DNA of 64,000 bases from Gemmatimonadota bacterium (GCA_028873695.1 JAPPNU010000062.1:257057-321056), one strand, 5' to 3'; positions 13,051 through 47,633 are shown, counted from the stretch's first letter. Numbers and translations: made by a program. The notes: generated from the letters alone by a model not told the origin.

Positions 13051-13054
13051 CGTA

Positions 13055-17309: not shown

Positions 17310-17353
17310 GAGCAGCCGGGAAAGACTGAAAGCGAAGAACCGAAAACAGAAAA

Positions 17354-17394
17354 GGGTCGAAGCGTGAGTGGCTTCGACCCTTGTTTTTGTTGTT
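17354..17394. terminator. Terminator hairpin between convergent lon and the NTase-HEPN gene; also the left edge of direct repeat copy 1
   Basis: GGGTCGAAGC gtgagtg GCTTCGACCC TTGTTTTTGTTGTT. Confidence 0.6.
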
Positions 17395-17434
17395 CAAATG
17401 CAACCGTACGTTTAGCCTGGATCTGCGGTCGTCC

Positions 17435-18259
17435 CTATTTGAAGCCGGTCTCCTCAGTCGTCTCTTCGTTCAACCCGCGTATGCGGTCGATGATTATCTC
17501 GACGGTTTCGGTCACGTCCGATAGCAGCGCATCGGGGTCTTCGATGACCACCTGCGAGTTCGAATAGCGATATCGCACAGCGTACCCGGTCAGCCACGCC
17601 AGCTTCTCGCCGGCCGGGGTGTGGTTTTCACCGGGATGCCGCCGCACGATAGCGCCGAGGGTCGCCAGATCGTGGGTATTGCCGTAGTCTGCGTCGAGCG
17701 CGGATATCCAGCCCTTAAGTGCGTTTTCGAGAGCCTGCTGCGCGTGAAACCCGATGGCTTCCTGAGCGGAATCAGCCTCTACGAGAACCTTTAGAACGCC
17801 GAGTTCGCGCTCAGCATTGGCAATGCGCTGCCGTATGTCGGGCCAGTTGGACGGCTCCGGGTTATCGTAGTCTACTTTGTCGCCATTTCCGTCAAATCCG
17901 TCGCGGACGGCCTGGCCTGCCACGTGGTTGCGCGCCCGGCGACCGACGTGGCAGGTCCGCTCGCTCATCTGGACCAGATCGACGCCGATCAGGTCGCCAT
18001 ACAGTTCCTCGACCTTGCGGTGGGCCGCCGCGCTCGTGTTCTGGTACTTCTGCCGGTCCGTGGAGTCGGAGTCGGAGATGATGAGCAGGTCGATGTCCGA
18101 TTTTGCGCGGTAGTCGCCCCGGGCTCGAGAGCCGAACAGAATGATCCGGTCCGGGCGAACCGCTTCGCCAACAGCCTTGGCGACGGCGAAGGCCTTTGGG
18201 TCGGGTGCGTTGCGTGTCCGAAGTTTTGCCAAAAAAGACGTAGACCTTCTGTACCGCAC
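17435..18259 (-). CDS. Fused nucleotidyltransferase (MNT-like) - HEPN domain protein, copy 1
   Basis: ILFGSRARGDYRAKSDIDLLIISD (GS...D.D polbeta-NTase motif), followed by the HEPN-like AIGFHAQQALENALKGWISAL...THDL. About 80% aa-identical (by eye) to 46833..47633. Confidence 0.75.
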   Translation of the reverse strand: MRYRRSTSFLAKLRTRNAPDPKAFAVAKAVGEAVRPDRIILFGSRARGDYRAKSDIDLLIISDSDSTDRQKYQNTSAAAHRKVEELYGDLIGVDLVQMSERTCHVGRRARNHVAGQAVRDGFDGNGDKVDYDNPEPSNWPDIRQRIANAERELGVLKVLVEADSAQEAIGFHAQQALENALKGWISALDADYGNTHDLATLGAIVRRHPGENHTPAGEKLAWLTGYAVRYRYSNSQVVIEDPDALLSDVTETVEIIIDRIRGLNEETTEETGFK

Positions 18260-18382
18260 GGTTGTTTACGGTTTTCCCGTTCGTCGCGGCCGTAACGGCG
18301 GATCCGGGAGGGTGAGGCCAATGACTGCGTTGCGCTGCCTCGCCTGCGGAGCGACATTATCGACCAACTGCCAGACCACAGG

Positions 18383-18925
18383 TCACGGCAGTTCCGCTTC
18401 CAAAACTTCCGGGTCCAATTGGTACCAGAACACCTCGCCGGATTCAACGAGATCCCTTATCCGATCGTCTCGTCGCAACCCAACGACAGCCGAAAATGCC
18501 TGGCTACCTGTAAGCCTGGTCAGGAACTCGGCATTTCGGAGGGTGCGGCGGGTGTCCCGACCATTGACGGTGAAGGAGATTTCCACGGCAATGTAACAGT
18601 GAGCGCCACTCTGGTCGGTGGCCTCTATAATCAGGTCGGCGCGGCGGAAGCTTCTCAACTCATTTGCCGGAACGTCAGACGTGTCGGTAGCGTTAATCAA
18701 CTCCCACAGATCAAATTCGGTGAGGTCTTTGACCCACCGAAAGCCCATCTCACCGGCTATGAAGGGTGTCTCCCGAAGCGCGGCACTCCGGGCGTGGGCG
18801 CCATTGAGTATACCAGGGTCATTCCGGATAGACGCCACGCTGTTATCGAGCGCGGCAGAGCGCCGGTTGGTGGCCTCGACGAACCTCTGCACCTCTGCTG
18901 CAAACTGTGTGAACATTTCAGGCAA
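18383..18925 (-). CDS. Hypothetical protein with a possible PD-(D/E)xK-like motif
   Basis: RRADLIIEATDQSGAHCYIAVEISFTV could be a D...E-x-S/K nuclease core. Co-oriented with, and directly upstream of, the NTase-HEPN gene. Confidence 0.45.
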   Translation of the reverse strand: MPEMFTQFAAEVQRFVEATNRRSAALDNSVASIRNDPGILNGAHARSAALRETPFIAGEMGFRWVKDLTEFDLWELINATDTSDVPANELRSFRRADLIIEATDQSGAHCYIAVEISFTVNGRDTRRTLRNAEFLTRLTGSQAFSAVVGLRRDDRIRDLVESGEVFWYQLDPEVLEAELP

Positions 18926-19349
18926 TTCAATCGGTTCCTACGTAAACAACCGGGCACGCAACGCATCGGACCACTCTGGATTGTCGTCCAGGATGCGTAA
19001 AAGGTCATCTATCGTATGAATCGTGGTGTTCACGGAGTTTCCTCAATGGCTGTTTTATCCATCGCCCAATCAACCGGCCGGGAAGATAACTCACCTGCAT
19101 TCATTGCAAGTGAAATCAATATACGGAAATCGGACACACAGGGCAATATAGCGGCTGAAAATCATGTACTGGATGGTTATTCAAACAGGACAATCACGGA
19201 TGGAAAAGATCCCTCGTCACGCGAGATACGCGGACTTGCACGGGCGACATCGCTCACCGCCGGTTCGAATAGGGGCCTGGGACGAAAATGGGCGTCGAAC
19301 GGTCCGCCGGCATGAGTTTCAACGCCATTCAGCTCTGGAAAGGGAAATA

Positions 19350-21479
19350 TTAGCGGCTGATGGTACGAACGATGCGCCCCTGCTGATCAACGACGTAGAC
19401 GGGATCATTCATCAGCCCGGCGCCGCAGGTTAGCTCGGGCGCGAGGAGAGAGGGCAGACCCAATGGCGGCATCTGCCTTTCGCCAGTAAGATTGAAGTTC
19501 GCTGTGGCATCCCACGACTGTTCTGCGCCCGATTGCGTGAGGATGTCCGGCCCTAAGGTGTTTGCGTCGAAGCCTAGACCTGCCGACGCTGACATGGCGA
19601 TCTTCGCTCCCGCGTTGGCTCCGGGCAGGGTATACGGATCGGCCTGCGTGACATCGATCCCATAGCCCAGATCGGCCAGAGACTGGATCGTGATCGCGCT
19701 CAGCGCCCCCCCAATCGCAGAAGGCGCCATCAGTTCGCCCGCGAGCACCGAGTAACTCCAGTGCCCCGGATCAGCCAACGGCACCTTCGCACCAGGGTAG
19801 TTTCGTCCGCCAGCTTCATCGAAGGCCGCAATTGCATGTGGACCGTTGAAGTGCTCGTCCCCGTCTGGCGGGTTCTGATAGAAGCCGAGATCGTCCCAGA
19901 CCAGACCGAACCCAAGGACGTGCCCTATTTCGTGAAGCGCTACGTTCAGCAGATCAGGGGATTGCATGTTGAAGGACATGCATCCGACGACTGACTGATG
20001 GGTCTCTCGCAACACTGATGAACCAGCCCACCCCAGTGGACCCTCTTCGTGGCTGACCGCATAGATTCGCAGGTCGTCTATCCGCTCCCCGGAGGCGATA
20101 TCGAACGACTGATCGCCGCATCCGTCCGACCAACCTTCAGAAAATTCATAATCCGGCAGGTCCTCTGTAATGATCGACATCCAGCGCCGAGTCGCATATC
20201 GGATTACGTTCTTCTGACCTTCAGTGAATCCGTCGAGAAAAACGAGTTCGATGTCGAAGTCGCCTTTTCGGAAAGAGTCAAAGTGCACCGTCGCTCCGTT
20301 GCGCTTGTGCGAGGGGATTTGTTGGTTGATGGATGATGCGTTCAGAGGATTGCCCCTGAGATCCAGCTCAGTCAGCCGCGTCAAGCCGCTCAGTGTCGCA
20401 ACGTCCGTGATGTTGTTGAACGCAAGATTCAGGTCTGTCAGGCGGGTGAGGACTCCCAGCGCAGACACATCCACGAGGTTGTTAGCTCTGAGGTCCAGCT
20501 CTGTCAGGTCAGGCAGGTCTCCCAGTGCCGATACGTCCGTGATCCTGTTGAACCCAATCCTCAAGGTTTCCAGTTTGTTCAAGCGTCCGAGAGCCGACAC
20601 GTCCGTAAGATCGTTGTCGTCAAGCCGCATGATTCTCAGGTTGGTCAAGCCGGAAAGTGCGGATATATCCGCGAGGTTGTTATGATCAAGTTCCAATTCT
20701 GTCAGGCTGGCTAAGTTTCCCAGCGCCGATACGTCCGTGAGGTTGTTGATCCCAAGCCAGAGGATTTCCAGCCTGGCCAATCCGGAACCGGCTAGAGTCG
20801 ACAGGTCCACGCGCCTGTTACCTCTAAGGTACAACTTCTTCAGGTCAGCCAGGTTTCTCAGTGCCGACAGATCCCTGATCCTGTTGAATCCAAGATGCAG
20901 CTCTGTCAGTTTCGTCAAGCCGGATAGCGCCGACACGTCCGTTAGCTGTTGATGGCTGAGGTGCAGGAACGTCAGGTTGGTCGCCGACTCCAGCCCGGTC
21001 AAATCGCTGATGCCGGGCCACTCCCAACCAGGCGCGGTCAGAGCGTCCAAAGAGTTCAATTCAGCCCTTGTGATCGGTGCGCCTGTATTCTTGCCCAGAG
21101 CCGCCTCAATCGCAGCCCGCAGGTTCGAATCGGGGATTGAGACCAGTGAAGACACCTCTCTGCCGAAGTTCTGTGCAAAGATCACAAAATCACCAAAGCC
21201 GATCTCGTCGTTGCCGTTCAGATCGTACTGCGCGTCATATCCGTCATCGCCCTGTACCAGGCCGAATTTCGCCGCGAACTTCACGAAATCGCCGAATCCA
21301 ATTGTACCGTCGCCGTCGAAATCGGGAATAGATGCAGTGTCGTCGCCTCGGGCGTCGACCGAGATCACATGAGACGTCGCGCGTTCGTCATCTAAACTAG
21401 CGCCAATGGCCGCGTGGCACACGAACGCCAACAGCGGGAGGGCGGCAATGGACAACAACAATCCTCGTGTAAATGACAT
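19350..21479 (-). CDS. Secreted dockerin-like / LRR / HExxH metalloprotease-like protein
   Basis: GGAGG then ATG at 21479. Signal peptide MSFTRGLLLSIAALPLLAFVCHAAIGA. Paired Ca-loops DFDGDGTIGFGDFVKFAAKFG and DLNGNDEIGFGDFVIFAQNFG. About 11 22-aa LRRs (LTDVSALSGLTKLTELHLGFNRI...). C-terminal domain with ALHEIGHVLGFG. Confidence 0.75.
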   Translation of the reverse strand: MSFTRGLLLSIAALPLLAFVCHAAIGASLDDERATSHVISVDARGDDTASIPDFDGDGTIGFGDFVKFAAKFGLVQGDDGYDAQYDLNGNDEIGFGDFVIFAQNFGREVSSLVSIPDSNLRAAIEAALGKNTGAPITRAELNSLDALTAPGWEWPGISDLTGLESATNLTFLHLSHQQLTDVSALSGLTKLTELHLGFNRIRDLSALRNLADLKKLYLRGNRRVDLSTLAGSGLARLEILWLGINNLTDVSALGNLASLTELELDHNNLADISALSGLTNLRIMRLDDNDLTDVSALGRLNKLETLRIGFNRITDVSALGDLPDLTELDLRANNLVDVSALGVLTRLTDLNLAFNNITDVATLSGLTRLTELDLRGNPLNASSINQQIPSHKRNGATVHFDSFRKGDFDIELVFLDGFTEGQKNVIRYATRRWMSIITEDLPDYEFSEGWSDGCGDQSFDIASGERIDDLRIYAVSHEEGPLGWAGSSVLRETHQSVVGCMSFNMQSPDLLNVALHEIGHVLGFGLVWDDLGFYQNPPDGDEHFNGPHAIAAFDEAGGRNYPGAKVPLADPGHWSYSVLAGELMAPSAIGGALSAITIQSLADLGYGIDVTQADPYTLPGANAGAKIAMSASAGLGFDANTLGPDILTQSGAEQSWDATANFNLTGERQMPPLGLPSLLAPELTCGAGLMNDPVYVVDQQGRIVRTISR

Positions 21480-21739
21480 GACCTGTCCTCCTCTCTTCGA
21501 AATCGTCCAGACGCGATGTCTTGCGTCAGGCCATTTGACAAAACTGACATTCAACGCTCGCGTTGTCCGTATCAAGCAAGAATCCACCGATGATATGGAG
21601 TCCAGCAGAGTCGTGTCGATCCTTAATATAACGCATAGTTGCTGAATTCGTTTTGATATTCCGGAAGTTTGCGTTTGATTATCGATGAAATTCAGGCCCC
21701 GGGGCGGACTCAGCCGTTTCGTGACCAACACCTACTGGT

Positions 21740-24325
21740 TCATGGGGCCTTTCCGAAGCTTTCTGCGAAGATCAGAAAATCAATGAACCCGATCTCTCCG
21801 TTGCCGTTCAGATCGTACTGCGCGTAATATCCGTCATCGCCCTGAACCAGGCCGAACTTCGCAGCAAACTTCAGGAAATCGCCGAATCCGATCGTCCCGT
21901 CGCCATCAAAGTCTGGATTGCGGGATTTCGAGATCGCATACGGCGACACATCCCACATCTTTATCGTGTGGTCATGACTCCCACTGACAAGCGTGTTTCC
22001 GTCTGGGGAGAACGCTACAGATCCGACTGTCCCAGTATGCCCGATGAAGATTTTCAGATGGTCTCCCGTACCGACATCCCACAACCGAATTTCGCTATCA
22101 GAACTGCCGGTTGCGAGGGTGACTCCATCAGGGCTGAAAGCAACCGGGTAGACACCGGTCTTATGGCCTTGAAGTATTCTCAACGTCTGTCCTGTAACTG
22201 CATCCCACAACCGAATTGTAAGGTCCCAGGCGCCAGTACTTGCAAGGATGCGACTGCCAATGGGGTGGAAGGCTGTTTCGACCCAATCTCCAGAAATCCT
22301 TTTACTATGCTCACTTAAGGTTCTCAACGGCTGTCCCGTGCCAGCGACCCAGAGCCGGATAATTCTGTCCGTACCTCCACTTGCAAGCGTGCGACTATCC
22401 GCACTGAAAGCAAGGCTGGTAACATTGTTATCCGGATGTCCTGGCAGTGTGGCGTTGTATTGCCCTGTAACAGCATCCCACAACCGGATTTCGCCTATCA
22501 GATCTCCAGTCGCCAGCCTGCGGCCATCAGGGGAATACGCGAGCGCCGAAACGCCGGACGTATGCCCAAAAGCAGTATGAGGACGCTGTGCACTCATTCC
22601 TTCAAGCGTCTGCTTGTGCTGTCCGGTTTCCGCATCCCATAACTGAATTTCACCCCAACTGCCATTCGTCGTGAGCGTGCGACCATCGGGTGAAAAGGTG
22701 ACCGCAGAAACAGTATGTGTAAACCCGGTGATTCTGGCTTTCTGTTCTCCCGTGACCGCGTCCCACAGACGCACCGTCTTGTCGTCACTCCCCGTTGCGA
22801 GTGTACCACCGTCCGGTGAATATGCAACACGAAAGACTTTACCGGTATGTCCGGTAAAGGTTTTCATAGCCGTCACCGGGATATCCGTCGTATTCACCGT
22901 AGCACTAAAAGTCACTTGACGGGAAACGCCGGAGACGCTCACCACAACGCGGTATTCATCCGTAAATCTCCCAAGGGTGAGAAAACTTCGGGCACGCCCT
23001 TCAGAATCGGTCCACGGATTAGTAACCGATAGGTTGCCATCGCCGGCAATCACATCAAATGTCACCTGAATTCCTGAAACAGGCTCCTCATCCGCGTCTC
23101 GCACTGTAACCACAAAGGGTTCTATAAGGCGGCTGTTCACATAACCGACCTGGTTATCCCCCGAGACTTTTCGGAGCGTCGTCGGGCTAAGGTTGCCAAC
23201 GTCAATCACACCATCTACGCGCTCCAGTGCGTCATCCACATAGATGGAATAGCCCTTCCATCTGAAATTTCCATGCACGTCAATAATTCCGAGTTCCACG
23301 TCATTACTGTCTCTGGATGTCAATTCGGTGGTGATGAATTCAACTGTGTTGTCTGTTTCGCCATTCAAGGATTTGCATCCGAGCAAACTGAAACCGGGTT
23401 CTCTTGGAATCATTAACTGTGCTTGATGGAGTCCATTGTGGTCGGTTACCTCAAAGCGAAGACTGTAGGCATTCGGTCGAACTACGCGTGGCGATAGCAG
23501 ACGAATCGTTGCCGGTTCGTCATTGGGAGGGGTTTCTCTGTCATTGAAGTAAGGATGGACATTCAACCACCCGGCAGCACACTTCGACAATCGCCTGTTG
23601 TGGAAGTCTACCCCTATGGTGTAAGACATGATGTCTGCTTCAGCTTGAACGGTACGGTCGCGGAAGTCGTGTTGTAATCCAAAGGAGTGTCCGAGTTCGT
23701 GGCCCGCGATGTATCTACGTAGAATGTACGGCTCGTCTCCGTGCGTATCGAAGGGGATATAGCAGATCGTAGCCCCGCCACGATAGGCTTGGCCGCCTCC
23801 GCGCCAATTGGATCCTGGATAGGTGATGTCTGCCGCGATGAAATAGATGTTCCGAGATGTGTCAAACCGATTATCGATTTCTTTCAGGACTCTGTCGAAG
23901 GCACCCTCGCTTCCATTATAATATGATGCGGTGAACTGCCCGTTCACACGATGTACATGAATTTCTCCGCTGGCGTCGGTCTCGACAGCAAAGGCTCTTC
24001 TGCCAAACCCGTTGCGTTCCATCTCGTCGGAGTAGAACCGTCGAACGGCTCGTATTAAAGTGTCCAGCTTTGCGTCGATGTCTGGATGAACCGCACGGTC
24101 GTTTGGCAGAAAATAAATCACTCGTAGTGTGCCCGGTTCGCCCACGTTGAGATTCGCCGATTGCTTGGCCGCAGGAAGGGGACGTTCGCTGCGCCACTGT
24201 TCGTAATCGGACGGTAAACAGAATTGTACGCTGTCGGGCGGTGCAGGCGAAGCTGAACCGCCGGAATGAAGGCAGACCGATGCTAATAGGCACGTCGCCA
24301 GATGAATTACCGTTTTGTTGTTCAT
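21740..24325 (-). CDS. Secreted HExxH metalloprotease / Ig-like (Big_1-like) / 7x WD40 / C-terminal dockerin-like protein
   Basis: Signal MNNKTVIHLATCLLASVCLHSGGSA. Protease motif HELGHSFGLQHDF. Ig-like VSGDNQVGYVNSRLIEPFVVTVRDADEEPVSGIQVTFDV. Seven repeats of the form SPDG.TLA.GS.D.T[IV]RLWD. C-terminal DFDGDGTIGFGDFLKFAAKFG...YDLNGNGEIGFIDFLIFAESFG. Confidence 0.8.
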   Translation of the reverse strand: MNNKTVIHLATCLLASVCLHSGGSASPAPPDSVQFCLPSDYEQWRSERPLPAAKQSANLNVGEPGTLRVIYFLPNDRAVHPDIDAKLDTLIRAVRRFYSDEMERNGFGRRAFAVETDASGEIHVHRVNGQFTASYYNGSEGAFDRVLKEIDNRFDTSRNIYFIAADITYPGSNWRGGGQAYRGGATICYIPFDTHGDEPYILRRYIAGHELGHSFGLQHDFRDRTVQAEADIMSYTIGVDFHNRRLSKCAAGWLNVHPYFNDRETPPNDEPATIRLLSPRVVRPNAYSLRFEVTDHNGLHQAQLMIPREPGFSLLGCKSLNGETDNTVEFITTELTSRDSNDVELGIIDVHGNFRWKGYSIYVDDALERVDGVIDVGNLSPTTLRKVSGDNQVGYVNSRLIEPFVVTVRDADEEPVSGIQVTFDVIAGDGNLSVTNPWTDSEGRARSFLTLGRFTDEYRVVVSVSGVSRQVTFSATVNTTDIPVTAMKTFTGHTGKVFRVAYSPDGGTLATGSDDKTVRLWDAVTGEQKARITGFTHTVSAVTFSPDGRTLTTNGSWGEIQLWDAETGQHKQTLEGMSAQRPHTAFGHTSGVSALAYSPDGRRLATGDLIGEIRLWDAVTGQYNATLPGHPDNNVTSLAFSADSRTLASGGTDRIIRLWVAGTGQPLRTLSEHSKRISGDWVETAFHPIGSRILASTGAWDLTIRLWDAVTGQTLRILQGHKTGVYPVAFSPDGVTLATGSSDSEIRLWDVGTGDHLKIFIGHTGTVGSVAFSPDGNTLVSGSHDHTIKMWDVSPYAISKSRNPDFDGDGTIGFGDFLKFAAKFGLVQGDDGYYAQYDLNGNGEIGFIDFLIFAESFGKAP

Positions 24326-24344
24326 TCGCAACGCCGTCCTTGAA

Positions 24345-26450: not shown

Positions 26451-27061
26451 TCCAGCGACACCGTTTGAGTGGCCGAGGCTTCTAATTGCCCCACGGCGAA
26501 TGCCTCGTTGTAGATAAACGCGTCGGTGCTGTCGATCGTGGCGTCGGTCGATCGGAAGAAGTCCAGACTCGCACCCCTTGCATCACTCCCTGGGTTGCGC
26601 ACCGTCGTCACCAGAGTGAAGGTTTGCCCCACCGTCAGGCTATTGTCGCTGACTTCAAACGACTGAATCGTCAGCCAACGGTCTGTTCCTCCTGTTCCGC
26701 CGTCCCCTTGTGAGCCACCGGTTCCGGAAGAAGCCGCCGCTTTCCCGAAGTTCTCCGCCAGGATCAAAAAGTCAGTAAACCCGATCGCCCCGTCGCCGTT
26801 CAGATCGAATAGCGGGTCATATCCGTCATCGCTCTGACCCAGGCCGAACTTCGCCGCGAATTTCAGGAAATCGCCGAAGCCGATCGTTCCGTCGCCGTCG
26901 AAGTCGGGGATGGACACGGTATCGTCTACGTTGGCGTCGACGGAGATCGCATGGGACGTCGCTCCTCCGTCGTTTGCGCTGGCGCCGACTGTGGCGTGGA
27001 ACAGGAATGCCGTCAACGTAAATGCGGCGATCCCGACGATGCCTCTCAAGGGATTAATCAT
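26318..27061 (-). CDS. 5' segment of the same gene: signal peptide, dockerin-like pair, first CARDB-like repeat
   Basis: AAGGAGG then ATG at 27061. Signal MINPLRGIVGIAAFTLTAFLFHATVGA. Dockerin-like DFDGDGTIGFGDFLKFAAKFG...FDLNGDGAIGFTDFLILAENFG. Ends ...CSAGVRVTVEGSMGGLRI* exactly where paralogues continue with PDL.V. Confidence 0.7.
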   Translation of the reverse strand: MINPLRGIVGIAAFTLTAFLFHATVGASANDGGATSHAISVDANVDDTVSIPDFDGDGTIGFGDFLKFAAKFGLGQSDDGYDPLFDLNGDGAIGFTDFLILAENFGKAAASSGTGGSQGDGGTGGTDRWLTIQSFEVSDNSLTVGQTFTLVTTVRNPGSDARGASLDFFRSTDATIDSTDAFIYNEAFAVGQLEASATQTVSLDWLAPPYGGTYYYGVCVFPWHNSFGNCSAGVRVTVEGSMGGLRI

Positions 27062-37426: not shown

Positions 37427-38356
37427 TTAACCGGCCAACACGCTGCACGCCTTGACGCTGTTTGGTACGTGCAGGATTACCTGATGAAGGCCATCCGGGT
37501 CGTTCACTTCGAGTTGAACCGCTACCTCCTTTGCGCCGGCCGGATAGGTGAGGGGTGAAATGAGTTCGATCGACGGCGGTTGTCCGCTCTCCGACGGGCT
37601 GTTTGCATCGAAGTACGGATGGGCGGCCAGAAATCCGGCGTTACACATGGACAACCGCGAGTCGGGTAGATTGCCATACGACATGACGTACTCGCTGTGA
37701 CGGAAGTCATGCCTCAAGCCGAAGGTATGCCCCAGTTCATGGCTGACGACGTTGTGATAGTTCCACGGGTCCATTTCGTCGCTGGTGACAAGGGCAAAAC
37801 CGCCGATTTTTCCGATTCGAGTACCTTTTCCAGCCGCTCCGCGTTCGATCAAATTCGTGCTGATATCGATGACGACGATATATACGTTCTGCTCGGTGTC
37901 GAATGCCTGTTCGATTTCGCTCAGGACCTTTACGAATGTTTCGTCGAGATAGTGACTGTCCAGGTACTGAGCATTCACGCGGTGTACAAGGGGCTCGCCC
38001 GCCCCGTCGGTTTCAAATTGAAAGGTTGTGTCGTCGTAGCCTCGCTCCCCCATCGAAACGGCATAGAAGGCTTGAACCTCACGGATTCGGTCTTTCATAT
38101 CCTTGACCACTTCTGCGCGATAGGGCCGATCATTCGGCAGAAAGTAGATCAGCCGCACCGTGCGCGGTTCGCCCACGTTCAGGTCCGCGGGACGCTTGGC
38201 CGCAGGGAGGGGGTGGTCACGGCGCCACGCCTCGTAGTCAAAAGGCTGGCAGAAGTGCACGCTGTCGGCCTCGGGCGTCGAAGCGGTACTGACGGAATGG
38301 AGGCAGACCGATGCAAAAAAGCACGTCGCCAGATGGATTACCGTTTTGTTGTTCAT
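37427..38356 (-). CDS. Signal peptide plus HExxH metalloprotease domain; 5' part of the split gene
   Basis: MNNKTVIHLATCFFASVCLHSVSTA and HELGHTFGLRHDF. Collinear with the N-terminal third of 21740..24325 up to ...DPDGLHQVILHVP. Ends at TAA 37427-37429. Confidence 0.75.
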   Translation of the reverse strand: MNNKTVIHLATCFFASVCLHSVSTASTPEADSVHFCQPFDYEAWRRDHPLPAAKRPADLNVGEPRTVRLIYFLPNDRPYRAEVVKDMKDRIREVQAFYAVSMGERGYDDTTFQFETDGAGEPLVHRVNAQYLDSHYLDETFVKVLSEIEQAFDTEQNVYIVVIDISTNLIERGAAGKGTRIGKIGGFALVTSDEMDPWNYHNVVSHELGHTFGLRHDFRHSEYVMSYGNLPDSRLSMCNAGFLAAHPYFDANSPSESGQPPSIELISPLTYPAGAKEVAVQLEVNDPDGLHQVILHVPNSVKACSVLAG

Positions 38357-38450
38357 TTGCATAACTCTCCTTCAGGCGCCAGTTGTTCGGATCGAGTGAA
38401 TCGAACTGTAACATTTCGCGACAGTTGGCACATCAGACAGCGGATGGGCA

Positions 38451-39367: not shown

Positions 39368-41116
39368 CTACCGTAGAGCGTCAGCCAGATCACTCTTCCC
39401 GAGTCGCTCCGCGAGCTGCAGCGGCGTCTCGTTCGCCGCAGAACGCAGGTTCGGATCGGCGCCTGCGGCAATCAGCGTGTTGATGGTCTCGACCGTTCCT
39501 AACATTACAGCCATGTGCAGAGGTGTAATCTGGTTCTTGTCCTGCGCGTTCGGGTCGGCGCCAGCCGCGAGCAGCGAGACCACCACCTCGACATGACCAA
39601 TCCCCAACCTCATCAGGAGCATTGCGTTATGCAACGGAGTGAGCTGGTGTTCGTCGCGAGCATTGGGATCGGCCCCTGCTTCAAGCAGGCTCGCAACTTT
39701 CTTCAGGTCTCCGCCTAACGCGGCCGAGTGCAGGGCACCCGTTCGAGGAGCGTCGGGATCGATATCTTGCAGGAGTTTCTTCGTTTCCGCATGGCCGCGG
39801 ATATTTGCCATGATCTCGGCCGTTCTCCCAAGTTTGTCACGCGCCCTCGTATCTGCGCCGGCTTCGACCAGAGCGGCGACAGCATCAACGTGACCGGACC
39901 AAGCAGCCTCGTGCAGCGGCGTGGTGCCGTCGCTGGTGGTCGCATTGGGATCGACGCCGAACTCGAGCAACGCCGAAATGACCCCAATGTGCCCTTCTGC
40001 GCTGGCCGCACGCAGAGCCGCTTGTCCGTTGTCCGGAAGGTTTACATCCGCGCCAGCGTCAACAAGGACTCGGATGGCTGCAACATGACCATTGCGGGCG
40101 GCGCTGTAAATCGGTGTTACCTGGCCAGGTAGGCCGTTCGGATCGGCGCCCGCCTCAATCAACGCCGAAATGGCCGCGATTTGCCCTTCTCCGCTGGCCA
40201 CATGCAGGGGGGTCTTCTTGTCACGGTCCTGAGCATTCACGTCCGCACCCGCGTCAACGAGAACGTCGATGGTGGGAACTTGACCGGTGGAAGCTGCATA
40301 GTGCAACGGCGAGGACTGTGGCATTGGTGCAAGCGGTGAATCGGCCGGCACATTCGGATTCGCACCGTCTTGAAGAAGATCTGTCAACTGCTTGACGTCT
40401 CCTCGTGCGGCCGCCTGATGGGTTTCCGGTGCAAATCTCATCATGAACGGAATGGTATCTCGAGCGGCAGCCTCAGATCTCGCCCGCAGCTCTTCGTCTA
40501 CCGCATCGAACGCTTTCGTGATTCTGCGACGAAGTTCATTCTCGTCGAAGCGTTCTGTCATTGGAGCCCACAGGCCGGTTGTATCGCGAACACCCATAAG
40601 TTTGAAGTCATGGCTCACCTCAGTGAAGGCGTGCCTCTCAGCATCCGCACGCAAATTGGAGGAATTATCGGGACTCTTTTGCGCGTAGTACCTATACCTG
40701 GAGACAGCATAGGTTGTCTTTATCCAGTCGTCATAAGAGAGTCCGTCTTCCCAGTACTTATCGAACGCAGGCTCCAGCAAGGCAACGATCTCCGCATCCT
40801 CTCTATCCTTAGCGGTCTTAAGCGCGCGCAGCCCGTTCAGGCTACCGGGTGCGTACGCGCCCGATTCAACCAGTTTCAGCACCTCCGCCACGTCACCCCG
40901 TTCGACCGCGGCCAGTAGCTGAACGCCGGACGACTGTTCCGGAGGTTGCGGTCCTCCACTCCCGATCGCCGCCGTCTCGCCGGCGGCGGCATCGACGGAG
41001 TCCGTGTGAGACATTGTGCGGTCTTCGTCAGAACCGGCGCCGATCGAGGCGCGGAACGCCATAGGCAGCAGCGCTATGGCGGCAATGCAAATCATGGCTT
41101 TCCGGAAAGCCAACAT
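39368..41116 (-). CDS. Secreted ankyrin-repeat protein
   Basis: Signal MLAFRKAMICIAAIALLPMAFRASIGA. At least 8 ANK repeats (SPLHYAASTGQVPTIDVLVDAGADVNAQD, KTPLHVASGEGQIAAISALIEAGADPN, etc.). Confidence 0.85.
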   Translation of the reverse strand: MLAFRKAMICIAAIALLPMAFRASIGAGSDEDRTMSHTDSVDAAAGETAAIGSGGPQPPEQSSGVQLLAAVERGDVAEVLKLVESGAYAPGSLNGLRALKTAKDREDAEIVALLEPAFDKYWEDGLSYDDWIKTTYAVSRYRYYAQKSPDNSSNLRADAERHAFTEVSHDFKLMGVRDTTGLWAPMTERFDENELRRRITKAFDAVDEELRARSEAAARDTIPFMMRFAPETHQAAARGDVKQLTDLLQDGANPNVPADSPLAPMPQSSPLHYAASTGQVPTIDVLVDAGADVNAQDRDKKTPLHVASGEGQIAAISALIEAGADPNGLPGQVTPIYSAARNGHVAAIRVLVDAGADVNLPDNGQAALRAASAEGHIGVISALLEFGVDPNATTSDGTTPLHEAAWSGHVDAVAALVEAGADTRARDKLGRTAEIMANIRGHAETKKLLQDIDPDAPRTGALHSAALGGDLKKVASLLEAGADPNARDEHQLTPLHNAMLLMRLGIGHVEVVVSLLAAGADPNAQDKNQITPLHMAVMLGTVETINTLIAAGADPNLRSAANETPLQLAERLGKSDLADALR

Positions 41117-41295: not shown

Positions 41296-41703
41296 TTAAA
41301 AAGACGATGAGCCCGAGCAGCGTTGAGACCGGTTCACCGCACTGACGAGCGTCACTCCGTTGGAAGTGACCGCGACCCCGAAGTCCTGACCCGTCTCGCA
41401 CCTGCTCCTCACGTCGCTGCTTAGATTGAGTTGTGAACATGCGGACTTGTAGGCCGCCGTAAGCGCTTCCTGTTGCGTCCCACCCTCGCCCGTTCCCTGC
41501 CCGGTACCCGATGGAGAACTGAGATTACCTATCCTCGACGGCACCAGCGTCAACGTTACCTCACATTGATATGAACCCGATCCGGCGCCGTTATCCTTGC
41601 CGCAGGCGTACGCGAAGTGCATAACCAACAGGCTGATTCCCACCACAAACGGCAATCGGGACTCTACCGTCAGGCTCTTGGCCATCTTGTATAGACGTTG
41701 CAT
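41296..41703 (-). CDS. Small Cys-containing lipoprotein-like protein
   Basis: Lipobox-like LLVMHFAYAC. The C-terminal ...VTLVSAVNRSQRCSGSSSF is echoed by translated R3 copies (RVRLVSQNATVERSQRCSGSSSN). Confidence 0.5.
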   Translation of the reverse strand: MQRLYKMAKSLTVESRLPFVVGISLLVMHFAYACGKDNGAGSGSYQCEVTLTLVPSRIGNLSSPSGTGQGTGEGGTQQEALTAAYKSACSQLNLSSDVRSRCETGQDFGVAVTSNGVTLVSAVNRSQRCSGSSSF

Positions 41704-42246: not shown

Positions 42247-44685
42247 TCAATCCGCTACGTGAATCGTCCAACTGTTGCTGCCGCTGTTTTTCGTGGCATG
42301 AAAGTTCCACCGCACACCGTTTATGGTGGACCCTCTGGCGTCTATACCGGTACCGGCGCTGAAGAACGCGATGGAACCCCTTCCGGAACTGGATACAGAG
42401 AAGGTATTGCCCTTGTAGGTACAGGTTCCGCCAGGATTCACGACCAGCCCGGCCCTGCAGGCGCCGCCACTTCCTCCGCCACTCCCGCTGACGGTGACCT
42501 CCACGGCGTCAGAGCAGTTGTTGCCGGTATCGCTCTCGTCGCTGACGTCGTCAACGCATGCGCCGTAGTAGTAGGTCCCGGCGTCCGACGGCGCGTTCAG
42601 GCTGATCGATTCGGCGCTTGTGCCCCCCGGAGACAGGCCGCTCACGGCGTCCGTGCCCACTTCCGTGTCATTTGTCGAGATTGTCGAGTTGGACGAGCGA
42701 TAGTACCGCAACGTCGTGGATCCTGCAGCCCCATTGCCCTGATTGCGCACCGTGGCGCTAAGCGTAAACGACTGTCCGGTCGTCAGCGTGTTGTCGTCCA
42801 CCGAGGGTGACTCGACGATCAGGTCGGGGTTATCCGACCCTCCGCCACCCGTGCCGCTGACGGTAAGGGTATTCTCACTGGCGTACTTGCCCCTGACCCC
42901 ATTAATGGTGATTTCGGCAACCAGTCGGTATTCTCCTGCGACCGTGGGTGAATAGGAACACAAACCGTTACGCTCCGTGCCCGGAACGTCGACCCAGGCG
43001 GATCCTTGTTTCCGCTGCCATTTAGACGTGTGAGCCATATACGATACGCCGTTGACGGTCGAGTTGTTCAGGATGATGCAGTTGCCTGCCGAGAAGAACA
43101 GGTATTGCACGCGTCCAGACGAAACGCGAAGACCGTCCAGCGGTTTGTAATCTCCGGAGGGCGGCGTTGTCCCGCCCCCACCTCCGCCACCGCCGGTTCC
43201 ACTTGGCGCCGTAGTGCCCTCGGCGATGGGCGACCAGGGATCTGCAGAGCCGGTTTCGCAGGAAGACGAGTTTCTATACCGGTAGCGCATTTCGTAGGTC
43301 GTATTCGACTTCAGCGCCCCGTAGAACCACGTGGTAGCATAGCCAATAAAGACATTGTTGCCCCGGTTCGTGAACGTCGTACAAAACGCTTCCCATTCTC
43401 CCTGCGGCGCCTTGGTCCGTAGTTCGAGATCATAGGCTCTCGTTTCTCCGGCACGCCACGTATCGAGAAATCTGAAGTAGAGCGTATCGGGTGTCGCTCG
43501 CGTAAAAACCGGAGTGGAGAGATCATTCGCCCGCCAGGCTTCTGCGTCCCCCGAGGTCCCATCGTCGCACGTGTAACCTATCGTGCCCGTGGCCTCTGTC
43601 GTAAACGTCATTTCAAGTGTGCACTTGCCCCCAAACAGCTCCGAATCGTCGTAGATCTGCGTGAGATTGCCCGTCATCGGACCCGTGTTCGTGTAGGTAT
43701 AGCGTCCCTCGCGCCTGCCGAAGCCTTCAGCAAACCGGCCGGCAGACACGATGTCCAGAAAGTAGGACTCCGCCAGAATCCGCTTGCCAACGGCCAGGCG
43801 GTCGAAGGCATTCTGGTCTGCGGGAGCAGAGCCGGCAGGCGTCCCGCCGCCGCCGGAGGGCGGGACCTCACTGCCGAATGCGCCGGCGAAAACCAGAAAA
43901 TCCGAGAAGGCGACGGATCCATCGCCATCCAGATCGAAGCGGGCTTCATACCGCGCATCGCCCCGGCTTGCCCCGAAACCGCCCGCGAACGCCAGGAAAT
44001 CCGGAAACCCGACGGTCCCGTCACCGTCGAAGTCCGGCGACCCGGAGCCCGCGGCGTTGAACGTGATGACGCTGCCGGTCGTGAGTTCATCGGACGACGT
44101 GGAACTCTCTGCAATCGAGACCTTCTCGACGCCGATGGTAAACTCCCTGCCCGTGACGTCTGCAGCCGTCTCAAACTCCGCGCGCACCAGGAACCCCGAT
44201 GACGCCAGCGTGACGGGCGAGGTCGAGGCGAGGTTGACCCCGACCGACCCCTCCGGTATCGAAAGGTCGAAGGCGCTTTTTTCAGATTTGACGTAGGTCA
44301 CTAGAGAGGCGTCAAAGTCGAACCTGATGATCGCGCCGCGCAGGGAGGTCGTGACCCCCGTGGCGAATACCTCGATGGCAATTATCGTGCCGCGTCCTTG
44401 CACGGCGCCCGTTGTCACGCCGTCGTCCCTCTGGTTGCCTGCGCCGCCGTCGGCGATCAGGTCCAGCGACAGAACTGCGTTTGCGTTGTTGCCCAGGGCG
44501 ATTTTCGCGCCGTGTTCCGACAGCGTGCCCTTGACGGAGTCACCGTCCCCGCCGGCAACCAACTCACCGCCGGCAATCACGTCGAGAGACGAAAACCCGT
44601 CTTCGCTGTACGCGACGAGAACTGCACCTGTTAACACGAAGAGGCCGACAACCACAATCACGGACAGGCGAAATACAGAATTCAT
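42247..44685 (-). CDS. Secreted cohesin-like / dockerin-like / unknown central region / CARDB / conserved C-terminal module protein
   Basis: GGGAGG then ATG at 44685. N-terminal hydrophobic segment. Cohesin-like and dockerin-like modules about 85-90% nt-identical (by eye) to those of 31416..34169. The last ~590 nt are about 95% identical. The central ~330 aa (YRYRNSSSCETGSADPW..., Gly-rich linkers) is unrelated to LRR. Confidence 0.8.
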   Translation of the reverse strand: MNSVFRLSVIVVVGLFVLTGAVLVAYSEDGFSSLDVIAGGELVAGGDGDSVKGTLSEHGAKIALGNNANAVLSLDLIADGGAGNQRDDGVTTGAVQGRGTIIAIEVFATGVTTSLRGAIIRFDFDASLVTYVKSEKSAFDLSIPEGSVGVNLASTSPVTLASSGFLVRAEFETAADVTGREFTIGVEKVSIAESSTSSDELTTGSVITFNAAGSGSPDFDGDGTVGFPDFLAFAGGFGASRGDARYEARFDLDGDGSVAFSDFLVFAGAFGSEVPPSGGGGTPAGSAPADQNAFDRLAVGKRILAESYFLDIVSAGRFAEGFGRREGRYTYTNTGPMTGNLTQIYDDSELFGGKCTLEMTFTTEATGTIGYTCDDGTSGDAEAWRANDLSTPVFTRATPDTLYFRFLDTWRAGETRAYDLELRTKAPQGEWEAFCTTFTNRGNNVFIGYATTWFYGALKSNTTYEMRYRYRNSSSCETGSADPWSPIAEGTTAPSGTGGGGGGGGTTPPSGDYKPLDGLRVSSGRVQYLFFSAGNCIILNNSTVNGVSYMAHTSKWQRKQGSAWVDVPGTERNGLCSYSPTVAGEYRLVAEITINGVRGKYASENTLTVSGTGGGGSDNPDLIVESPSVDDNTLTTGQSFTLSATVRNQGNGAAGSTTLRYYRSSNSTISTNDTEVGTDAVSGLSPGGTSAESISLNAPSDAGTYYYGACVDDVSDESDTGNNCSDAVEVTVSGSGGGSGGACRAGLVVNPGGTCTYKGNTFSVSSSGRGSIAFFSAGTGIDARGSTINGVRWNFHATKNSGSNSWTIHVAD

Positions 44686-44838
44686 AACAGATCCTCCCTT
44701 GTATTCATACCTTCCAACAAGCCGGCTGCGTGGTCAGCCACCGAAACAAGCCCCTCTTGTACGGCTGACGCACCGCCGATGCCTTTCACAATGCTTCATT
44801 CCTGCGCAACCGCCAGTTGGCAGCATTCGCCGCGTGAT

Positions 44839-45648
44839 CTACTTCAACAACAGCATCCTCCTGGTCGCTGAGAAACTGCCCGCCAGTATCCGATACAGAT
44901 AGACGCCGCTGGCGACGCGTCGGCCCAGCGCGTCCGTTCCGTCCCACGTCGCTGTAAACGTCCCGGGGTTCATGCGTTCGTTCACCAGTACGCGCACCTC
45001 CTGGCCGATCAGATTGTAAATCGCCAGCCGGACCATTCCCGCCTCCGGCAGGTGGTATTCGATTGCGGTGGAAGGGTTGAACGGGTTGGGCGTATTTTGC
45101 TCCAGATTGAAGCGATCCGGCAGCGGCTTGAGGTCGCCTATTTCGGCGTGATGCAACATGTCAACAGCGCCATTCATGCCGACAAGCACGCTTTCGGATA
45201 CCTGAAAGTCGGACGACAACGGCATTCCGTCCGTCCTGAACAAAAGCTCGGCGAGTTTCCCGTCGCCGTTGGCGCCCCCGCCGTCGATCTTAACGGCGCC
45301 GATATCCACCTGCCCCGGCGTCCGGTTCGATGAAAGAAACAACGTCTCCTGACCGGAACCGGATTTCAGCAGATTGCCGTCGAGTTCGGTGGCACTCACG
45401 AACTCATACTTGACCGGATCGTATAGCAGGGAAAATCCGTATCCCTTCAGATCCTGGGTCCGCGCCACCGACACGAGCATTTTCAGAACGCCGCTGTCGG
45501 CGCCTGGGTCGTTCACACGCTCCAGCTTCAGCGTCGCATCGGCATTCCGACCCCCGGTAATGGTCAAGCCGCGGGTAATGTCGCCTGCGAGCGCCGGTCC
45601 GCATAAAACGAACGTCGCACAGACGGATGTAAGGACGCGAGTCCACAT
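44839..45648 (-). CDS. Cohesin-like protein with a T9SS (Por) C-terminal sorting domain
   Basis: AAGGAGG then ATG at 45648. Signal MWTRVLTSVCATFVLCGPALAG. Cohesin-like VLKMLVSVARTQDLKGYGFSLLYDPVKYEFVSA...GDGKLAELLFRT. C-terminal FNLEQNTPNPFNPSTAIEYHLPEAGMVRLAIYNLIGQEVRVL...WDGTDALGRRVASGVYLYRILAGSFSATRRMLLLK matches the type A T9SS CTD pattern. Confidence 0.8.
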   Translation of the reverse strand: MWTRVLTSVCATFVLCGPALAGDITRGLTITGGRNADATLKLERVNDPGADSGVLKMLVSVARTQDLKGYGFSLLYDPVKYEFVSATELDGNLLKSGSGQETLFLSSNRTPGQVDIGAVKIDGGGANGDGKLAELLFRTDGMPLSSDFQVSESVLVGMNGAVDMLHHAEIGDLKPLPDRFNLEQNTPNPFNPSTAIEYHLPEAGMVRLAIYNLIGQEVRVLVNERMNPGTFTATWDGTDALGRRVASGVYLYRILAGSFSATRRMLLLK

Positions 45649-46021
45649 ACCAGCCTCCTTGCATTGCGTCACCATTGCGGTGACAGGGTGTATGATGCCA
45701 AATTCGTTGAGGACGATCGTACGAGATATACCCGTGATCTTGCCTCCGATCACTCGGCGCTACTTCGTCATGGCGCGGCTCCTTCCCGTGCACGCTCGGT
45801 ACACAAAAAAAAGCCTCTCGAAAACACGAGTGGGCCGTTTCCAAAATTCCGCAACTTTCCATCAGCATTTCTACTGTCACCAATTAGAATTGGGGGGGGA
45901 TGAACATCTACGGCATGAATCATGCCGCGGTCCAGAAGCTCCGTGCCAGTCATCGGGCGACCTGCCACTTCAAATTGAGCAACAAACATCGTCGTTCAAC
46001 CTATATAGAATGGTACCCGCG

Positions 46022-46204
46022 TCAATTCCTCCCTTTGCCGTCGCAATCGGGAGGAAACACAGCCTCGTTGTTGCCTTTGACAGTGATCGCATGTGTCGTT
46101 GCACCGTCGTCAACTGTATTGGAATTGATCATCGCGTGGCAAACAAACCCGAGCAACGCAATGGTGGCGTTTGACAACAACAACTCTCGTATTAGCGAAA
46201 TAAC
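46022..46204 (-). pseudogene. 5' relic of an island secreted-protein gene (signal peptide to first dockerin loop; start codon lost, premature stop)
   Basis: My translation: VISLIRELLLSNATIALLGFVCHAMINSNTVDDGATTHAITVKGNNEAVFPPDCDGKGRN*. Compare MSFTRGLLLSIAALPLLAFVCHAAIGA...ATSHVISVDARGDDTASIPDFDGDGTIGF. Confidence 0.5.
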
Positions 46205-46751
46205 CTATTCTTCGTATGACTTATGTCGTCTAGGCGCCACGTCTCGGATCCTGCAGACCTATTGACAATATTGCCCTATAAGCTCGGCGGATTTCGTTTC
46301 AATCGGGAATCCGCCACCGATCAAGTGTTGGGCAGAATCTCAACTAACACAAATATAACACTTCGTTGGCGAATTTGCTTTGAAATATCGCGCTTTTTTT
46401 ATGATTTTTTGCTGAAATTTCCTGGAAATGCTCGAAATCCAGGCCAATTGACCCCGATAATCCATCGGACGTTGCAGAATGACGGGACGTGGAGTTTCGT
46501 TCAGAGTGAACCAGGATTACTGCCGGGGAAGGAATTGGACGAGATCGACCCAACATTCGAGGTCTTCACGTCAGTCGCCGTGGCACACGATTCAATCCGG
46601 ATATTCGCGGGAGACATTGACGCGGCGGAGGGCGCCGGTTGGACGGCGGCGTTGGGTATGAGGGAAGGTGGATCTGCGCGGGTGATAGCGGACGTGAGGG
46701 AAGGAAGAGGGACAAGGAGGGTAGTTTCGGAACGATTATAACAAAAAACAA

Positions 46752-46792
46752 GGGTCCAAGCGTGAGCGGCTTCGACCCTCGTTTTTGTTGTT
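46752..46792. terminator. Terminator-like hairpin, left edge of direct repeat copy 2
   Basis: GGGTCCAAGC gtgagc GGCTTCGACCC TCGTTTTTGTTGTT. Homologous to 17354-17394. Confidence 0.5.
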
Positions 46793-46832
46793 CAAATGCA
46801 GCCGTGCGTTAAACCTGGATCTGCGGTCGTCC

Positions 46833-47633
46833 CTATTCGGAGCCGGGCTCCTCGGTTGCCGTTTCGTTCAGCGCCCGGATGCGGGCGACGATCGCTTCAA
46901 CAGTCGCGGTCACCGCCGAAAGCAGCGCATCGCGGTCTTCGATGACCACCTGCGGGTCTGAATAGCGGTATCGGACGGCATACCCGGTCAGCCACACCAG
47001 CTTTTCGCCGGCCGGTGTGTGGTTTTCACCGGGATGCCGCCGCACGATGGCGGCAAGCTTCGCCAGATCATGCGTGTTACGATAGTCGGCGTCGAGCGCG
47101 GAAATCCACCCTTTCAGCGCGTTTTCCATTGCCTGCTGAGCGTGAAACCCAATGGCCTCCTGAGAAGATCGGGAGTCTTCCACAAGGACTTCCAGATCGT
47201 TGAGACACCGCCTGGCATTGGCAATGCGCTGCCGTATGTCGGGCCAGTTGGACGGCTCCGGGTTATCGTAGTCTACTTTGTCGCCATTTCCGTCAAAACC
47301 GTCGCGGACGGCCTGGCCTGCCACGTGGTTGCGCGCCCGGCGACCGTCGTGGAAGGCTTTTTCGTTCAGGTGGACCAGATCGACGCCGATCAGGTCGCCA
47401 TACAGGTCCTCGACCTTGCGGTGGGCCGCCGCGCTCGTGTCCTGATATTTCTGCTCGTTCGTGGAATCGGCGTCGGTGATGATGAGCAGGTCGATATCCG
47501 ATTTTGCGTGGTAGTCGCCCCTGGCTCGAGAGCCGAACAGGATGACCCTGTCAGGGCGGGCTTCTTCGCCAACGGCCTTGGCGACGGCGCAGGCCTTCGG
47601 GTCGGGGGCGTCGCATGTCGGGAGCGTTGTCAT
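46833..47633 (-). CDS. Fused nucleotidyltransferase (MNT-like) - HEPN domain protein, copy 2
   Basis: MTTLPTCDAPDPKACAVAKAV...ILFGSRARGDYHAKSDIDLLIITD...AIGFHAQQAMENALKGWISAL. Start moved to ATG 47633 because the ORF-track extension overlaps the phoX-like gene. Confidence 0.75.
   Translation of the reverse strand: MTTLPTCDAPDPKACAVAKAVGEEARPDRVILFGSRARGDYHAKSDIDLLIITDADSTNEQKYQDTSAAAHRKVEDLYGDLIGVDLVHLNEKAFHDGRRARNHVAGQAVRDGFDGNGDKVDYDNPEPSNWPDIRQRIANARRCLNDLEVLVEDSRSSQEAIGFHAQQAMENALKGWISALDADYRNTHDLAKLAAIVRRHPGENHTPAGEKLVWLTGYAVRYRYSDPQVVIEDRDALLSAVTATVEAIVARIRALNETATEEPGSE

Follow-up and report, generated by a model that had tools for sequence, protein, structure and literature searches.

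The 64-kb window analysed here (W; coordinates counted from its first letter) belongs to a metagenome-assembled genome (MAG) labelled Gemmatimonadota and displays, between the core genes lon and phoX, two copies of a gene encoding a fused nucleotidyltransferase (NTase)-HEPN protein (NH). The lon-proximal copy (NH_L) and the phoX-proximal copy (NH_R) are both recorded on one 363-kb contig of this MAG and enclose 28.5 kb of cargo genes, largely for eukaryote-like (repeat) proteins (ELPs). ELPs are signature symbiosis factors of sponge bacteria, and the diversification of their repertoires is poorly understood. The nearest genomes are those of sponge-type Candidatus Latescibacterota, several at chromosome level, and the NCBI label Gemmatimonadota is attached to several MAGs of this sponge-associated Latescibacterota lineage. 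Locus pieces from relatives are referred to by L-numbers, and all locus states were taken from different species-level genomes (core 86-96% identical at the nucleotide (nt) level). As argued below, the phoX-lon interval is probably (at a rough probability of 0.7) a chromosomal plasticity hotspot, expandable by homologous recombination between repeated gene, terminator and cargo modules.

Organization of the island ends

The cargo of W is framed by collinear direct repeats (17352-18232 and 46752-47633), identical in 746 of 884 alignment columns (84.4%, 5 gap columns; MAFFT and global alignment), while identity in the 100 nt beyond the repeat ends is 48% and 53%. An earlier sequence-only reading of the window had located the repeats at 17352-18225 and 46752-47625, ending 7-8 nt short of the start codon. 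It had also described the same hairpin string opening both copies, which it quoted exactly, a whole NTase-HEPN open reading frame (ORF) in each with about 80% protein identity, and a near-identical stretch of ~110 nt. Alignment bears these observations out: both ORFs are intact and share 83.9% identity as DNA and 80.5% as protein, and the stretch extends over 132 nt with one mismatch (Table 1). Likewise, the flanking genes it took for lon and a phoX-like gene match Lon and PhoX in Pfam.

Each repeat consists of a terminator hairpin, a 50-nt 3' untranslated region (3'UTR) and a complete NH ORF, the hairpin and 3'UTR together (17352-17434 vs 46752-46832) being 89% identical. As the similarity stops at the start codons, the promoters lie outside the repeat. 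The left hairpin scores as a terminator on both strands, and the right one was missed by a simple terminator scan because of a single C-C mismatch in its stem. The stem (GGGTCGARGC...GCYTCGACCC) is found 3' of the NH copies in all close relatives, and in L001 and L003 it has undergone a compensatory change from A-T to G-C (GAAGC/GCTTC to GGAGC/GCTCC). In the sister loci, the stem also marks the lon end, follows some cargo genes and lies upstream of the TPR gene; in the 64-kb window, the family occupies three places, i.e., the two NH terminators and a degenerate copy at 50291. A pervasive element of the repetitive extragenic palindrome type was rejected for the window on account of this low number (two copies and one degenerate). 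The hairpin instead behaves as a small intrinsic-terminator family able to double as short recombination substrates.

Variation of the locus among Latescibacterota

The flank order IUNH-M32-TPR-PhoX ... Lon-MR_MLE-GFO is kept in L002-L005, L051, L052, L054, L056 and L058. Lon orthologs with 89-92% amino acid (aa) identity are located at the locus in L002-L005, L051-L054 and L056-L058, and PhoX orthologs with 90-93% aa identity adjoin an NH copy in all close relatives. Between these anchors, at least eight distinct states were found, with one to four NH copies and from 0 to ~20 kb of cargo in the relatives compared with the 28.5 kb of W. Nothing but a single NH gene (L052, L053) or two adjacent NH genes (L004, L054, L056) lies between phoX and lon in the smallest intervals. 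Two copies are also carried by L005, L051, L003 and L058, together with 1-3 kb of unrelated cargo. L005 has 2.3 kb of unrelated ORFs between its copies, L051 a 125-aa ORF between them and two ORFs before lon, and in L003 and L058 the copies are separated by ~3 kb and a further ~2 kb adjoin lon. Cargo is thus also located outside the pair, between the lon-proximal NH and lon, in three of these genomes (L003, L051 and L058). In L058, this outer segment encodes a PIN-domain protein and a small partner, a VapBC-like pair (12797-13506). L002 has one NH gene, and an LRR gene and a gene for a dockerin-like protein come after this lone copy. The longest array among the relatives comprises four NH copies, one of them frameshifted, alternating with four LRR genes and others over ~20 kb in L001 and L057, which are parts of one closed chromosome and overlap by 646 nt at 100%. 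Finally, L015/L019 displays at least one NH copy and rearranged cargo related to that of W.

The sequence-only reading had considered that relatives might all carry the same content or that the repeats might be an assembly duplication. The related genomes instead vary strongly in NH number and cargo, and the two copies differ by 16% and recur as a pair in independent assemblies, including chromosome-level ones. The island-less junction and the alternative cargo it anticipated both exist (L052/L053, and L002, L003, L005, L051 and L058, respectively). Its proposal that the repeats bound an inserted or expandable region is supported, with refinements: the region is expandable, but the pair was not made by insertion, as it also occurs as an empty tandem in L004, L054 and L056, and the repeats are not strict boundaries.

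NH genes are also found away from this interval. The genome of L051 carries a third NH copy 4.9 Mb away (L055), followed by the hairpin, the spacer and a large LRR/M66 gene, and an LRR793-type gene is located just upstream of NH in L006-L008, L011 and L012. In distant Latescibacterota, NH arrays are surrounded by genes for PhyH, sulfatase and aldo-keto reductase, and ELP genes are lacking there. L056 was considered as the closest relative of W because of a 94% partial Lon match and rejected, since its core DNA is 87-90% identical, as in the others. Exact-sequence look-ups of the window PhoX, Lon and P0245 gave no record, and a JGI metagenome scan gave two distant partial relatives only.

Evolution of the NTase-HEPN pair

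In a codon-alignment tree of the close group, the NH genes fall into a phoX-proximal clade (NH_R, its counterparts and the extra copy of L001) and a lon-proximal clade (NH_L and its counterparts), and these positional clades hold across W, L003, L004, L005 and L051. The exception is the empty tandem of L054 (9099-10777), where each copy falls in the clade expected of the other. Based on the positional clades and a core-gene tree of PhoX, M32 and IUNH, (L054,((W,(L004,L015)),((L001,L005),(L052,(L051,(L002,L003)))))), the NH pair predates these species. L052 and L002, each with a single copy, branch within the two-copy genomes, and the lon-proximal copy was therefore lost independently at least twice. 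The dN/dS ratios of 0.18-0.31 in both paralog and ortholog comparisons reflect purifying selection, and thus both NH copies are maintained.

In addition to being old, the copies have been in contact. Within the 132-nt tract, the W copies are 99-100% identical to each other compared with 84-92% to their own orthologs, and a Sawyer-type permutation over 389 polymorphic sites gave P = 0.0014 for W, 0.002 for L004 and 0.0036 for L054. Furthermore, the 3'UTR of NH_L is of the phoX-proximal type up to the hairpin, where the orthologous lon-proximal copies of L004 and L005 carry a ~90-nt insertion. The tract and this 3'UTR together show that NH copies exchange sequence, and the exact start of the repeat at the hairpin is explained in this way as well. 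The two copies are old paralogs and not recent duplicates, att sites, insertion scars or an assembly artefact. Their positional orthology also argues against an acquisition of the W copies along with the cargo. Head-to-tail arrays of two to four NH genes were also observed in the distant Latescibacterota L012, L013, L014 and L018; here, copies from one genome group together in the tree, pointing to concerted evolution or independent duplication.

The single NH gene of L052 is of the phoX-proximal type in both halves and over the whole coding length, and the lon-flank sequence starts directly after the hairpin. A P/Q chimera resulting from a mid-gene crossover was thus rejected for this gene. 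The junction would fit a deletion at the shared terminator, not inside the NH gene, and allelic replacement could be an alternative origin of the L052 state. Recombination between the repeats had been expected, in the sequence-only reading, to leave lon, one NH copy and phoX; this junction does exist in L052 and L053, but it is joined at the hairpin and not within the gene.

Cargo composition and history

The enrichment of ELPs in sponge-associated Latescibacterota has been surveyed (PMC8163846, PMC12993501). In W, the large genes located at 19.3-45.8 kb all lie on the minus strand and encode LRR, WD40, ankyrin, CARDB, FGE-sulfatase, zincin-like and type IX secretion system (T9SS)-tail proteins (Pfam, NCBIfam; Table 1), the cargo being a set of co-oriented genes for secreted eukaryote-like or adhesin-type proteins. 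The G+C content (GC) is 57.7% between the copies vs 60.4-61.6% in the flanks, and at third codon positions (GC3) it is 0.54-0.73 in cargo genes vs 0.75-0.88 in lon, phoX, M32 and both NH copies. The impression of accessory content gained in the sequence-only reading thus agrees with both the ELP-type repeat proteins and the composition. Several modules recur among the cargo genes, namely a signal-peptide leader, a dockerin/EF-hand-like module (six copies) and CARDB units. No integrase, transposase or recombinase was found in ORFs of at least 60 aa at 17.4-47.6 kb (Pfam, with NCBIfam and PADLOC on small ORFs), and no tRNA or tmRNA in the 64-kb window (ARAGORN). As far as its gene content indicates, the W locus is not a self-mobile element.

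Between the cargo proper and NH_R lies a ~1-kb spacer, which accompanies the phoX-proximal copy in W, L001, L003, L005 and L019. At the cargo edge lies the decayed 5' fragment of an LRR793-type gene, which marks an old rearrangement breakpoint. In L001, the spacer and the homologous leader run straight into an ortholog of LRR793 (88% nt), and therefore the ~24.6 kb between ~46134 and ~21523 in W constitute an indel with the decayed leader at its edge. The ORF o172 was considered as a conserved convergent gene and rejected, owing to its GC3 of 0.53 compared with 0.65-0.88 in real genes, its weak conservation and its position antisense to the decayed leader; it is probably spurious. At the other end, a homolog of o180 (58%) occurs in L016, while L005 lacks this ORF at the equivalent position.

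The cargo displays a history of its own. L019 and W are 86% identical over the NH fragment and spacer and then 94.8%, 94.3%, 93.8% and 93.5% identical in cargo segments, compared with 87-89% for the core flanks on L015; the step from 86% to 94.8% falls within the single contig L019. The cargo order of L019 differs from that of W, with breakpoints at shared modules. In the genome of L004, where the locus itself is empty, a collinear FlgD_ig-CARDB-CARDB cluster (81% nt) is found ~600 kb away in an ELP cluster without NH. The mosaicism of L019, the indel of L001 and this remote cluster show that cargo moves between ELP clusters, and it probably moves between lineages as well.

Two features of individual cargo genes may be mentioned. 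The 876-aa protein encoded at 27340-29970 (-) is an unusual fusion, in which ankyrin repeats are joined to two FGE-sulfatase (formylglycine-generating-enzyme-like) domains. The LRR+CARDB and CARDB genes share 300-nt 3' ends (31416-31715 and 42247-42546; C-terminal 193 aa) that are 95% identical, compared with ~74% for the rest of these genes, which suggests a recent conversion inside the island; a remote cluster of another species (L064) also matches 241 nt of this shared end at 95% identity.

Table 1 Features of the phoX-lon interval in W and of its flanking anchors
Feature	Coordinates	Strand	Evidence or remark
lon (ATP-dependent protease La), left anchor, convergent with NH_L	14787-17309	+	Pfam Lon_C, LON_substr_bdg, AAA
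Left hairpin, bidirectional terminator common to lon and NH_L, left repeat end	17352-17382	.	12-bp stem, 7-nt loop, T-runs on both strands
NH_L 3'UTR, conserved, phoX-proximal type	17383-17434	-	89% identity to 46783-46832
NH_L, lon-proximal paralog, 265 aa, TTG start, intact	17435-18232	-	Pfam NTP_transf_2 + HEPN; identical to database protein P0019
Conversion tract, left copy, 132 nt	17814-17945	-	one mismatch to 47215-47346
o180, just upstream of NH_L, part of the variable region	18383-18925	-	no Pfam, NCBIfam or PADLOC match
LRR	19350-21731	-	cargo
Zincin+WD40	21740-24382	-	cargo
CARDB	24345-26450	-	cargo
Leader/dockerin-like/CARDB	26318-27061	-	cargo
Ankyrin+FGE-sulfatase	27340-29970	-	cargo
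Small ORFs	30278-31397	-	cargo
LRR+CARDB	31416-34199	-	cargo
CARDB fragment	34268-34807	-	cargo
WD40	34877-37417	-	cargo
Zincin	37427-38362	-	cargo
Ankyrin	39368-41116	-	cargo
o135	41296-41703	-	cargo
CARDB	42247-44685	-	cargo
FlgD_ig/T9SS-tail	44839-45753	-	cargo
Decayed 5' fragment of LRR793-type gene: signal peptide and start of dockerin-like module, then stop codons	46022-46204	-	
o172, probably spurious ORF antisense to spacer and pseudo-leader, convergent with NH_R	46223-46741	+	
Right hairpin, left end of right repeat, stem as in the left hairpin except for one C-C mismatch	46752-46782	.	folds
NH_R 3'UTR, conserved	46783-46832	-	alignment to left copy
NH_R, phoX-proximal paralog, 266 aa, ATG start, intact	46833-47633	-	Pfam NTP_transf_2 + HEPN; identical to database protein P0001
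Conversion tract, right copy	47215-47346	-	one mismatch to 17814-17945
phoX (alkaline phosphatase PhoX), right anchor	47719-49086	-	Pfam PhoX, E = 2e-80

Predicted properties of the NH protein

The NH family shares 68-88% aa identity across Latescibacterota and often occurs in tandem arrays of two to four. Its NTase motif GSx10DxD (G34-S35-x10-D46-x-D48) is invariant in 43 family members, and its HEPN half is a classical PF05168 domain (Pfam), not HepT/DUF86. The W copies display R-x5/6-H (R198/R199...H205), with D as the family consensus at position 205; as R-x5-H is unconserved across the family, no RNase activity is claimed. The HepT-type motif RphixxxHxY, with catalytic R and H and an acceptor Tyr, is absent. 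Searches of PADLOC and NCBIfam with NH gave only sub-threshold matches, in the NTase motif region, including MntA (36 bits vs a cut-off of 60), ANT_9 (21.9 bits vs 340) and HalB (also far below its cut-off), and a PDB sequence search matched the NTase motif only. The AlphaFold model of NH has a pLDDT of 73.8 and gave weak Foldseek matches (E about 1e-3, TM 0.28-0.36), with AAD(9), ANT(4'), LinB and DrrA as whole-chain matches and an MNT protein (8xeo) and a HEPN protein (2hsb, TMt 0.72) for the separate domains. No NH relatives were found on plasmids, and IMG/VR viral contigs gave only 20-33-aa matches to the NTase motif.

Among characterized proteins, NH may be compared with the fused MNT-HEPN toxin-antitoxin FhepTA of Shewanella, for which RphixxxHxY is the defining motif (PMC13000451), and with the two-gene type VII system HepT/MntA, since its N-terminal half matches MntA models weakly. 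However, NH differs from these in its PF05168 HEPN domain, in lacking both RphixxxHxY and an acceptor Tyr in that context, and in being chromosomal and conserved across a phylum, with no plasmid match and viral matches of motif length only. ANT(4'), AAD(9) and LinB, which combine an NTase with a HEPN-derived helical domain, resemble NH in domain order and size and are its best whole-chain Foldseek matches, yet these matches are very weak in both structure and sequence, and a true HEPN domain (2hsb) is recognised in the C-terminal half. HEPN domains fused to MNT are usually inactive or domesticated (PMC3710099), and NH is most likely a domesticated nucleotidyltransferase of the MNT-HEPN type, which at this locus would serve as a passive recombination substrate and not as an actor.

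Origin of the locus and alternative explanations

In the hotspot that we propose, the scaffold would be the old tandem NH pair, each copy ending in the same terminator hairpin, with ELP genes accumulating downstream. The 0.8-kb NH copies, the ~30-nt terminator stems and the leader, dockerin-like and CARDB modules of the cargo could all act as recombination substrates. Unequal crossing-over between copies would add units of NH and cargo, as may be seen in the four-copy array of L001, and would also remove them, leaving an empty pair or a single copy, while non-reciprocal exchange would homogenise patches of the NH copies. Cargo segments may in addition be copied in from other ELP clusters or swapped between lineages. 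We infer RecA-type unequal recombination as the mechanism and the diversification of host-interaction proteins as the selective driver.

Several observations weigh against this explanation. No recombination intermediate or within-population variant was seen and the states come from different species, so the events are read from their end states. The swapped clade order of L054 needs an extra step, e.g., duplication followed by loss. As the single-copy gene is no P/Q chimera, its junction does not prove crossover within the 0.8-kb repeat, and another deletion route or allelic replacement may have produced it. The boundary of high identity between W and L019 (~45800) lies between spacer and cargo, outside the NH gene. 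Moreover, the end of L015 and the start of L019, which come from one short-read MAG, break inside the NH gene, and their overlap is 141 nt long and 100% identical; this length is exactly the assembler's k, and the L015-L019 join is therefore only graph adjacency. Finally, the model leaves the first entry of cargo into the locus unexplained.

It could also be speculated, although this is rather unlikely, that NH is functionally tied to the cargo, so that NH, hairpin, spacer and ELP gene form a selected cassette, for example with NH as a fused MNT-HEPN toxin-antitoxin-like or regulatory stabiliser or controller, and arrays grow as whole units duplicate. The recurrence of an NH-hairpin-spacer-LRR unit 4.9 Mb away in the L051 genome (L055), the alternation of NH copies with LRR genes in L001/L057 and the LRR793-type gene upstream of NH in L006-L008, L011 and L012 are in line with such a cassette, as are the invariant GSx10DxD, the R-x5/6-H retained in the HEPN half of the W copies and the existence of fused MNT-HEPN toxin-antitoxin modules (PMC13000451). 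On the other hand, NH pairs without cargo (L004, L054, L056) and a lone NH (L052) exist, and the distant NH arrays among metabolic genes, with no ELP, weaken a general link between NH and ELPs. With 68-88% aa identity, the family resembles a housekeeping gene in its conservation, and no member was found on mobile genetic elements. Furthermore, RphixxxHxY is absent, H205 corresponds to D in the family consensus, and a HEPN domain fused to MNT is as a rule inactive (PMC3710099). A bolder version, which we consider doubtful, holds that NH and its terminator are no passive repeat but the dedicated scaffold of a recombinase-free cassette array in sponge-symbiont Latescibacterota, with NH-hairpin units interleaved with ELP genes in arrays that expand, contract and exchange cassettes, and with an NH protein that might be a single-chain addiction or regulatory module; if true, the array would be a recombinase-free functional analogue of the integron for symbiosis factors.

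The association may instead be a coincidence, in which an old tandem pair happens to flank locally duplicating ELP genes and the repeats do not contribute to gain or loss. Much of the cargo diversity can indeed be accounted for by recombination among modules within the cargo, cargo lies outside the pair in L003, L051 and L058, and the W/L019 identity boundary is outside NH. This is nevertheless improbable, as the NH copy number (1-4) varies together with cargo, an extra phoX-type unit of NH, spacer and LRR gene is duplicated in L001, conversion tracts in three genomes prove physical exchange between copies, and the lon-proximal copy was lost at least twice. Least probable, and very unlikely, is a site-specific mobile island or integron-like array with the hairpin as an att/attC-like site and a recombinase encoded elsewhere: in several genomes, the stem family does bracket cargo, being located behind NH and some cargo genes as well as at the lon end, the single-copy junction is at the hairpin and the cargo genes are co-oriented, but neither the window nor the sister loci contain an integrase, transposase or tRNA, the G+C stem with T-runs is an intrinsic terminator whose compensatory change is as for an RNA structure, most W cargo genes lack the hairpin (three copies in 64 kb) and the rearrangement breakpoints are in coding modules, not hairpins.

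Relation to known systems and significance

The hotspot reading places the locus beside core-gene-bounded hotspots such as O-antigen and capsule loci, which are exchanged through flanking homology. Like these, the W locus occupies a fixed site between core genes, has a content ranging from nothing to tens of kb without self-mobility genes, and displays mosaic cargo discordant with flank identity and a slightly atypical composition. Several hallmarks of a hotspot are present, i.e., the same core flanks, differing content and direct evidence of recombination (conversion tracts, the L019 step and the decayed leader). Unlike such hotspots, however, the W locus is framed and punctuated by internal direct repeats, namely one to four paralog copies with a terminator, and its cargo consists of module-shuffled secreted eukaryote-like repeat proteins and not of a biosynthetic operon. 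Tandem arrays under concerted evolution share with it direct repeats of a gene and its terminator, a copy number of 1-4, conversion tracts and, in L012-L014 and L018, within-genome clustering, but at W up to 28.5 kb of unrelated cargo separates the units and two paralog types persist across species.

Integron arrays also contain co-oriented accessory genes, some followed by a hairpin, in arrays of variable length. The W locus differs from them in lacking IntI, in having perfect terminator-like stems and not attC sites, in cargo genes with their own leaders and upstream regions, and in breakpoints within coding modules. Compared with a classical integrative island, variable presence and atypical composition are shared, whereas W has neither an integrase nor a tRNA/tmRNA site nor short near-identical att repeats (its repeats are 0.88 kb long and 84% identical).

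The W locus thus adds a new case to a known class of genome plasticity, and it shows where and how symbiosis-factor genes diversify. As phoX, lon and the repeated NTase-HEPN gene mark a fixed site, the gain, loss, duplication and shuffling of ELP genes there can be compared between closely related species, and a lon-to-phoX assay of polymerase chain reaction (PCR) size could follow structural variation in symbiont populations. Short-read (de Bruijn) assemblies can break in the NH repeat, as in L015/L019; MAGs are therefore likely to under-report ELP genes at such loci, and islands behind the repeat can be lost from them.

Other sequence elements in the window

An element, GCGAAGACCGCTGGGAATTTTAAGACAGCTTCT, is shared at 6487-6565 (+), 49098-49136 (-) and 63778-63877 (-), where it ends 15-25 nt 5' of the ATG of a GFO/MocA oxidoreductase gene, phoX and an ORF ending at 63812. 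Two of the GCGAAGACCGCTGGGAATTTTAAGACAGCTTCT copies also have a common upstream part, TTGACC...GCGCTTTTGCAGCC, and the element is found in L001, L002, L005, L015 and L054 too. It resembles a promoter or 5'UTR motif common to the genes of a putative regulon. An Rfam scan of the whole window returned no family. Finally, a 45-nt purine-rich tandem repeat is located at 50605-50703, within a doubtful 300-aa ORF between the TPR and M32 carboxypeptidase genes.

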